From a virus (lineage: Duplodnaviria > Heunggongvirae > Uroviricota > Caudoviricetes): a stretch of DNA of 22,815 nucleotides. The position numbers are program-made. This document shows positions 6,001 through 9,000 of the stretch, piece after piece. Location of the stretch: IMG/VR virus record IMGVR_UViG_2529293042_000013, one strand, 5' to 3'. Every line of letters starts with the position of its first letter. Positions within the stretch are counted from its first letter, which is position 1.

Positions 6001-9000
6001 GTATATGGGGAGGATACTCTTTTAATGGATAGCAGCCATTAATTATCGACTCTCTGAGTTGTTCAATCGTGCTAAATGCAGATCTTTCTCTTTCAAAATT
6101 ATCATGTCCAACACACATTCTATATATGGTTAATCCTGCCTGATATATGTCATATGTGAAATTATAATCATTTGTTGATAAAGAAAATATTCCGGTGGCA
6201 CATGAAAATGATATCCAAACTCAGGCGCAGCTCTCGATTCCTCATTGACTAACTGAGATAATCCAAAGTCAGATAGCATGGCCTCATTTCTGTTTGATAT
6301 CATAATGTTATTAGGTTTTATATCAAAATGCATAAGACCTTTTGAGTGTATATGATAAAGTCCACTTAAAAATTGAATGGAATACCGTATTATCTCCCTG
6401 CTTGTAAGATTATTTTTTTCATTAATTGGTTTAGCGAACCATTATGATAAAATGGCATGGCTATATAGATATTGCTCTCACATTGAGCAGCATACTGAAC
6501 TTGCACAATATTTGGATGTGCATGTTTATAGAGAAGCCTTGCTTCATTAAAGTAGTCGTCGTGGTTAGTGTTTTCTTTTTTTCTATTTCTTTAATCACCA
6601 AGTCATGAGCTAGGTGTCTGTCATGAGCCAGATATACTTTTGAAAAACAACCCTGTTCTTCTAGATCACTAATCCATTCGAATTCTACATCAGCTCTTTT
6701 GTATGGAGTTAGCATCCCCTTACCTCCGCAGATAGTGCAGCCAAAACAGCTTCATTTGTTTCAGTTGTAAAACCAGAATTATCGATTCCATTTATATTGC
6801 GGTGTGACTTCAATATTTCTTTATACTCGATCTCTGTTAGGTTCAATGATGATTTCATGCCAGATTTTCTAATAGTGTAATATTTTCTTACATCACTGCT
6901 TGAAAATGCTTCTTGAATAACAGCTTCTATATAAAGGCGGTCAATGCTAAGATTATCAGAGTTTGATTCAGTAACGCGTATGGCAGCTAATTCAACATTA
7001 TATAAATTAAGAATGTCGAGGATGTTATTTCTCACATACTTTAATTTTTCTGGTGTGTCTAAGGTCGAAGGTATTTTAATAACATCAACACATTTGAGTG
7101 CAGACTCATTAGTGCAATATACAACAAAAGATGTAACTTTGGGCGCCGCTCTAACACCTAGTATTCTCATTTTTTATATCCTATTTTAGAATCAGGCCGC
7201 ATCTCTGCGACCATCCATCATCCAAACGTCTCTTCACTCATCCGAAGAAGCAGCAATCCGGGTTAGCACGCACAAGCTCAAGCGCATCAGTCAGCGAAAG
7301 TTCAGTACTGTACTGATGCCATTTCATATCCTTCCGCATCCAATAGATTTTCCATCTATCCAGAGAACGTATGTACTTGATTCTTGCTGATGGCAGGATG
7401 TTTGTTTCACCTGGATTGCCCTGCCACACGGGGCGCTGTTCGCCGATATCTATCGTTTGGTCATTGATGCTATAAACAATATCCAGTTCATTGCGGATAT
7501 GTTCAGGCGGCCTTATGCTTTCAATGAATTGGTGAACTTCTTTTTTACTGCTTGATATTCAAGGTCATTGAACGCCATCTATCCTCCTTACCCAAACGTC
7601 TCTTCAGGCCACTGGTTACCAGCTATGTGACGATGAAGTCACGAACTTTTCAGCCACTCCCTTGCCTCGATGTCATCCAGATGGCGAGATTGCTTCAGAA
7701 TACCAGCTACATACTCCACCTTTGCTACTTGATGATAAGGCAACGTTATAGGCCTGTGATCCTGGTTAATGCTTGTAAATTGGTATTCTCCATCTCTGTC
7801 ATAGCCAAGAACCTTAATCATGTTGTGTCCTTCAACGGTTCTGACAAACACCTCATCACCCGGGAATACTTTGGTGTTAGGCTCAATGAGTACATATTCT
7901 CCTGATTTTATTCTGGGCCACATGCTGTCTCCTTTCACACGAAGACCAAAGGCATCTGGATCATCGCTATAAATTTTGAGCCACCCATCGCGCTCTTCGG
8001 TCATCTCGATGGCACCATCAACACCAAGAATTGCCTCACCAACCACGCGCACTAACCCTTTTTTAATTTGCCAACAAATGAAAGAGTATCTTCATCATTC
8101 GCTCCATTTAACGAAGTGCCGTGCTGAAGCCAAACAACATCAACGTTTAGAAATTTCGCAAGCGCATTCATTTTTTCCTGACGCGGTAAAGACTCAGCAT
8201 TAAACCATTTGCTAACGCCTTTGGACGAAAGAGAAAGGGCACGGGCTATAGCCATTCCCCTACCATGTTCATCAAGACCAGCTTCTTTACAGGCTTGCGC
8301 TAGCCGCTGGGCGAATTCTTTGCGCACTTTTTCATTCTGAACCATGAGTACGATACTAAAGCACTTGCAAAAACTTTCAGTTCAACCATAATACGTACTG
8401 AAAGTACGAAAAAGGATATTCCTATGCAAAATCTTGATGAGCCGATTAAAGGTGTCGGCATCCCTGAAGTTGCGAAGGCTTGTGGAGTTAGCGAAAGGGC
8501 TGTCTATAAGTGGCTCAAAAACGGCTTCCTCCCTAAGACTGAGTTTTTTGGGAAAACTAAATACGCATCAAAAATCGAAGAGATTTCTGGTGGCAAATAT
8601 CAAGCAAGCGAAATGCTTGAAATAAGCAAAAAGAACCTTCTGGCTGCATAAGTAACACCGCTATTTTCACAATGGACATTCGTCCTACGTCGCTGACAAA
8701 GCGAGTCCCAATATATCTGACCAACTAAGGCCATATGCGTTTCCACGCATACCTTTCAACTAACTATTCACTATTGGAAATCTTAAGAAATGGAACAAAC
8801 AAGTTACAGCAAACTATCCCAGCGTGACGTTGATCGCGCAGAAACTGATTTACTCATCAACCTGTCAACGCTTACCCAGCGTGGTCTGGCAAAGATGATT
8901 GGCTGTCATGAATCGAAGATAAGCAGAACGGACTGGAGGTTTATTGCTTCGGTCTTGTGTGCTTTCGGAATGGCATCAGACATCAGTCCGATTAGCAGGG

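Follow-up and report, generated by a model that had tools for sequence, protein, structure and literature searches.

The window analysed here is one whole draft contig of 22,815 bp, AIFG01000016.1 of GCA_000249295.2, an E. coli draft from the DEC collection. The cI repressor gene is written in it as two minus-strand ORFs. The 5' part (8345..8052, minus strand) begins with ATG and encodes 97 aa, while the 3' part (8052..7639, minus strand) begins with a GTG at 8052-8050 and encodes 137 aa. A sequence-only reading of this DNA had placed two minus-strand ORFs at 7639-8345, coordinates that agree exactly with our ORF list. A TAG made by the frameshift (8054-8052) closes the 97-aa ORF and overlaps the GTG start of the 137-aa ORF in the sequence TAGTG. 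Pfam detected HTH_3 on the 97-aa ORF (E = 1.6e-6, 28.5 bits vs a cut-off of 23) and Peptidase_S24 on the 137-aa ORF (E = 1.3e-16), bearing out the earlier claim that the break separates the HTH and S24 domains; the intact cI of 933W carries both domains on a single chain. The PHROG transcriptional repressor families agree with the Pfam assignment as a repressor.

The 97-aa ORF corresponds to codons 1-96 of 933W cI at 100% identity, and the 137-aa ORF corresponds to residues 99-235 of intact cI and is likewise identical to 933W. The break lies in the linker between the two domains: it comes after Gly97, 7 residues before the start of the Pfam S24 match (residue 104), 10 residues before a Leu107-Gly108 dipeptide and upstream of Ser141 and Lys178. 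All three of these features lie in the 137-aa ORF: Leu107-Gly108, the putative cleavage site; Ser141, within a GDSM motif (codon 7926-7924); and Lys178 (codon 7815-7813). The translation thus contains the Ser/Lys catalytic dyad of an S24 peptidase, Ser141 and Lys178. As written, with a stop after Gly97, the contig does not encode HTH and S24 domains joined by a cleavable linker in a single polypeptide, a failure that we attribute to a one-base under-call and not to biology.

The rest of the switch is intact in the window: N, cro, cII and Q as well as the operators. With coordinates transferred from the 933W annotation, the right operator region (8338..8408) comprises oR3 at 8338-8352, oR2 at 8370-8384 and oR1 at 8394-8408. 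These three operators, PRM and PR lie between cI and cro in a gap-free alignment that is identical to 933W. The cro gene (8424..8651, plus strand, 75 aa) is intact in the ORF list, divergent from cI and annotated as cro in 933W, F451 and Xuzhou21. The locus therefore has divergent cI and cro genes across a tripartite right operator, with 100% identity to annotated 933W in both the oR region and cro.

In the alignment of the immunity region, the window matches 933W only from ~4604 to 9047. Where 933W has an O/P pair, the replication module of the window (9250-13050) consists of an HTH_36 initiator and a large Toprim primase/helicase gene, an arrangement also seen in Min27, Stx2a_F451 and phiXuzhou21. 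The interval separating stx2B from the nanS-p esterase gene holds an IS629/IS1203 copy of 1310 bp (20528-21837), flanked by a GAA target-site duplication (20525-20527 and 21838-21840). The closest complete relative, O157:H7 ECP19-198 (NZ_CP066759), shares this IS site downstream of stx2, and its copy there has a sequence 100% identical to that in the window. F451, Xuzhou21 and Min27 have no IS629/IS1203 at that site, and F451 has ISEc8 in the same interval. In ECP19-198, the N gene is annotated as a truncated pseudogene (locus 5131-5199) and a second IS1203 interrupts ant (15702-17692), whereas in the window N is intact (127 aa) and ant is free of IS elements.

The base missing from cI

Over positions 7600-8400, the window and 933W were identical at 801 of 801 aligned bases, with one gap in a homopolymer. 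The reference cI (933W, NC_000924, 12075-12782) is 708 nt long and encodes 235 aa, and the alignment confirmed the previous identification of the gene as a 933W-type cI with an intact product of 235 aa. At the apparent frameshift site, the window has a shortened run of T6 (coding-strand A6; 8059..8064) that is T7 in every comparator. On the coding strand, the window reads GGC AAA TTA AAA AAG GGT TAG, compared to TTA AAA AAA GGG TTA GTG in 933W. The A7 run occupies codons 95-97 of 933W cI, of which the window lacks one A, and cI is one 708-nt ORF in all comparators. The sequence-only reading had also entertained an artefact, in which one extra A/T would give a single continuous ORF, and this is the form that every comparator sequence takes. 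Its guess of 8054-8055 for the missing base was off by ~5-10 bases, though the broader interval that it named for resequencing, 8040-8065, does cover the run.

To see how the two alleles are distributed, the region was compared with complete genomes, phage records and assembled contigs. Among 5,426 complete E. coli genomes, 615 had a match to window positions 7600-8400 at an identity of at least 95%, giving 616 records in all. Among the matches listed, 40 of 40 complete-genome records aligned at 99.9% over 802 subject bases vs 801 query bases, with the extra base present, and the 36 best-ranked phage records likewise aligned at 99.9% over 802 bases and carried it; no listed phage or complete-genome match reached 100%. 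When a 70-base query centred on the run was used, 0 of the 616 complete-genome records reached 99% identity, all of them carrying the extra base. The A6 allele was also absent from the 140 matching phage records, the best-ranked of which all have the extra base. An exact 42-mer of the A6 allele had 0 matches in IMG/VR, genome_contigs (GTDB representative genomes) and metagenome_contigs (JGI metagenomes), and an exact 43-mer of the A7 allele was found on 69 IMG/VR contigs.

In a look-up among 15 billion proteins, the exact 97-aa product occurred on about two dozen contigs, compared to >1000 for the intact protein. The contigs with the short product belong to low-accuracy assemblies (draft, long-read or single-run), including the DEC drafts AIGX01 and AIFP01, the multi-megabase-contig assemblies VIFQ01 and JBDIFK01, and several single-run Logan assemblies. 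Aligned to F451, seven of the nine other contigs retrieved with this product had contractions or expansions at neighbouring long runs, and the T8 at F451 reference position 7076 was altered in 6 of those 7. One such assembly had 33 indel columns, almost all of them homopolymer deletions. The combinations of run changes were non-nested across these contigs, whose phage backgrounds lie 0 to 150 SNPs apart, and none of the window's indels was present in complete genomes only 4-5 SNPs from the window. This pattern of recurrence fits a recurrent platform error; inheritance cannot explain it. One mosaic phage with the A6 run (L079) has as its best complete-genome match a record with another immunity region.

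Single-base indels across the contig

The window was compared along its length with a set of mutually agreeing references: prophage Stx2a_F451, phiXuzhou21, the Xuzhou21 chromosome, the ECP19-198 chromosome and, where homologous, 933W. Over ~21.4 kb, 9 single-base indels set the window apart from them, compared to only 4-5 substitutions, and at all eight indel sites outside cI the four or five references agreed against the window. Two of the indels are intergenic insertions of A, at 669 and 692. Three contractions fall in stk (A5 to A4 at 6184-6187, and T8 to T7 both at 6413-6419 and at 6576-6582), whose 348-aa kinase is left as ORFs of 84, 67 and 148 aa. Another (T7 to T6, 7541-7546) shortens the ORF of the DUF3024 gene adjoining cI to 63 aa, and the next (T7 to T6, 8059-8064) is the one in cI itself. 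Further along the contig, a contraction of A7 to A6 at 15416-15421 leaves the antirepressor gene ant as two ORFs (73 and 130 aa), and a change of GG to G at 22719-22720 splits the nanS-p esterase gene. Thus, 7 of the 9 indels are in coding sequence, each of them breaking the frame: three in stk and one each in the DUF3024 gene, cI, ant and nanS-p.

The frequency of change depended strongly on run length. Both of the two reference runs of 8 bases were changed in the window, as were 3 of 7 runs of 7 bases, compared to 1 of 109 runs of 5-6 bases and 3 of 15,607 runs of 1-4 bases. Taken together, 5 of the 9 runs of at least 7 bases were shortened by one, vs changes in 4 of 15,716 shorter runs (Fisher p = 2e-15). 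The predominance of indels was also unexpected: with indels accounting for as much as 20% of true differences, the probability of at least 9 in a set of 13 is p = 1.7e-4. Finally, the five broken genes (stk, DUF3024, cI, ant and nanS-p) contain no substitutions, which is not how prophage decay looks, and the indel density of the contig, extrapolated genome-wide, would amount to thousands of frameshifts.

As to the substitutions, those at 1865, 17140, 17160 and 22761 are the sole ones separating the window from the ECP19-198, Xuzhou21 and F451 prophages. The pair at 17140 and 17160 lies 20 bases apart in the KilAC/Roi antirepressor gene.

Two marks of an assembly artefact are therefore present: the cI indel (T7 to T6, 8059-8064) is an assembly-private change within a homopolymer, and indels exceed substitutions across the contig and concentrate in its longest runs. 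Since the missing base is absent as a variant from the high-quality sequences and the indels depend so strongly on homopolymer length, we conclude with high confidence that the cI split, while present in the text of the contig, is a sequencing artefact and not a real biological feature. The biological alternative raised in the earlier reading is not supported, the frameshift being one of nine contig-private single-base indels that concentrate in the longest homopolymers. On this account, a base-calling or assembly error rendered the coding-strand A7 as A6 in AIFG01000016.1, and the same error process shortened four other long homopolymers and made four further single-base indels. We infer that the miscall has its cause in sequencing chemistry, the DEC draft assembly being presumably of pyrosequencing origin. 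In the real prophage, a single uninterrupted ORF of 708 nt then most likely encodes the 235-aa repressor; the gene is the ordinary and well-studied cI of 933W-type Stx phages, divergent from cro across oR1-oR3. Calls of split genes or pseudogenes in this contig, which here concern cI, stk, ant, nanS-p and the DUF3024 gene, are not to be given a biological interpretation, and the same caution applies to sister draft assemblies with the 97-aa product.

Alternative readings of the split

The alternative that fares best is a genuine slippage mutation, by which a Stx2a prophage would carry a null or split cI allele; we regard it as very unlikely. The lysogen would then make the 97-aa HTH fragment and perhaps an S24 fragment separately initiated through TAGTG, and it would either lose immunity or owe it to a second prophage of the same immunity. 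A7 tracts are genuine hotspots of replication slippage, but over half of the runs of at least 7 bases in this contig are altered in the same way, and its five broken genes come with hardly any substitutions. In one independent sample (L081, described below), nothing but the A6 run distinguishes the sequence from a complete genome, yet the A6 allele is absent from the 616 complete-genome records, the 140 phage records and the 69 IMG/VR contigs. Reinitiation is conceivable from the arrangement of the sequence, the GTG at 8052-8050 overlapping the new stop and being preceded by AAGGG, but the switch is otherwise intact, and established lambdoid biology would lead one to expect that a true cI null induces constitutively and is lost.

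The consequences of a real split would also differ from those first proposed. The sequence-only reading had reasoned that an HTH-only repressor, being unable to undergo RecA-stimulated autocleavage, could alter SOS induction of the phage. In lambda, 434 and LexA, cleavage deprives the N-terminal product of the C-terminal dimerisation domain, and its hold on the operators is lost. By analogy, the 97-aa fragment would be essentially the N-terminal product of RecA-stimulated cleavage: it ends 10 residues before the cleavage site and would thus mimic the inactive post-cleavage product. The argument for an uninducible phage is accordingly weak, and what a true split predicts is loss of immunity and constitutive induction, not non-inducibility. 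Given an intact N, cro, cII and Q and intact operators, a lysogen with a real split would be unstable. Were the split true, the ease with which the Stx2a prophage is induced, and hence the amount of toxin released, would be affected. A fuller version of this scenario, which we consider slightly less probable again, has a real deletion yielding mainly the 97-aa HTH fragment with a trace (about 0.3-4%) of wild-type repressor made by -1 slippage; lysogeny would be maintained with little repressor or by a homoimmune prophage, and the lysogen would be hyper-inducible and high in toxin.

One sample stands apart from the other occurrences of the allele. In L081 (Logan contig SRR14347937_544, 1336-2042), the same cI A6 allele is found in a non-Stx prophage with 933W-type immunity. 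Over 6.6 kb, the A6 run is its sole difference from the complete genome of E. coli CX12 (NZ_CP073719), and eight other runs of 7-8 bases are unchanged between the two. In CX12, cI is intact and the N gene is truncated, and a real cI frameshift could be tolerable in a CX12-like prophage because of that truncated N gene. The A6 run in L081 could be a genuine slippage variant or a read-level error. It leaves the verdict for the window contig unchanged, while keeping a small probability that the A7 tract of 933W-type cI could be a natural slippage hotspot.

The remaining alternative is programmed recoding, in which a -1 ribosomal slip (or transcriptional slippage) at A6G would restore the wild-type 235-aa protein and leave the 97-aa HTH fragment as a second product. 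The deletion does create a dnaX-type heptamer, A_AAA_AAG, in the zero frame (8064-8058, minus strand), followed by GGT TAG TG; in TTA AAA AAG GGT TAG, a -1 shift after AAG would read GGG TTA GTG and so yield the wild-type protein. This heptamer is among the most shift-prone in E. coli, but without stimulators it shifts at only ~0.3%, at most ~3.7% (PMC4066793). No stimulator was found on either side: the folding energy of the 90 nt beginning at the heptamer is no better than that of shuffled sequences (MFE z-score -0.96), arguing against a downstream stimulatory structure, and the sequence has no Shine-Dalgarno-like (GGAGG-like) element 10-14 nt upstream of it. The two-frame arrangement is also unconserved, every relative having a plain in-frame A7, and recoding presupposes that the deletion is real. 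Given the lack of a stimulator, the low unaided efficiency and the lack of conservation, we rejected programmed frameshifting, whose probability we consider negligible.

Relation to known repressors and to known assembly errors

Among characterized repressors, the closest to the gene underlying the split is 933W cI (NP_049485.1 / WP_000250473.1, 235 aa), to which 801 bases including the oR region are identical bar one base. The two loci share the same neighbours (cro, cII, the DUF3024 gene, stk and N) and the same HTH_3 and Peptidase_S24 architecture, and they differ by the missing A, which is private to the contig and attributed to sequencing error. This cI is also found in phi24B, Min27, Stx2a_F451, phiXuzhou21 and many O157:H7 prophages. 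A search of PDB sequences with intact cI returned nothing at E <= 0.001 and, at E <= 5, only chance pseudoazurin matches and marginal HTH matches.

Like members of the LexA/lambda cI family (MEROPS S24) of repressors that cleave themselves under RecA stimulation, the gene product has its DNA-binding domain at the N terminus and, at the C terminus, an S24 domain carrying a Ser/Lys dyad. By our reading of the sequences, the linker motif G-E-A-I-L-G of 933W cI (G-x-x-x-L-G) aligns with G-R-V-A-A-G of LexA. According to Koudelka and colleagues in 2004, the 933W repressor reportedly cleaves at Leu-Gly and not at Ala-Gly, and we take Leu107-Gly108 to be its cleavage site. Uninducibility is a property of full-length catalytic mutants, and the known uninducible (ind) mutant of 933W is the full-length K178N protein (PMC3610611). 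Binding of adjacent operators by the 933W repressor is not cooperative (PMC3317979).

The split itself resembles the homopolymer miscalls of draft assemblies made by pyrosequencing, semiconductor sequencing or nanopore consensus. In such drafts, as in the window, under-calls rise steeply with run length, and the changes are private to the assembly and produce many frameshifts with almost no substitutions; as seen here, unrelated assemblies go wrong at the same long runs. None of the features observed sets the window apart from such drafts. The gene beneath the miscall is the already well-characterised cI of 933W, a member of the LexA/lambda-cI S24 repressor family.
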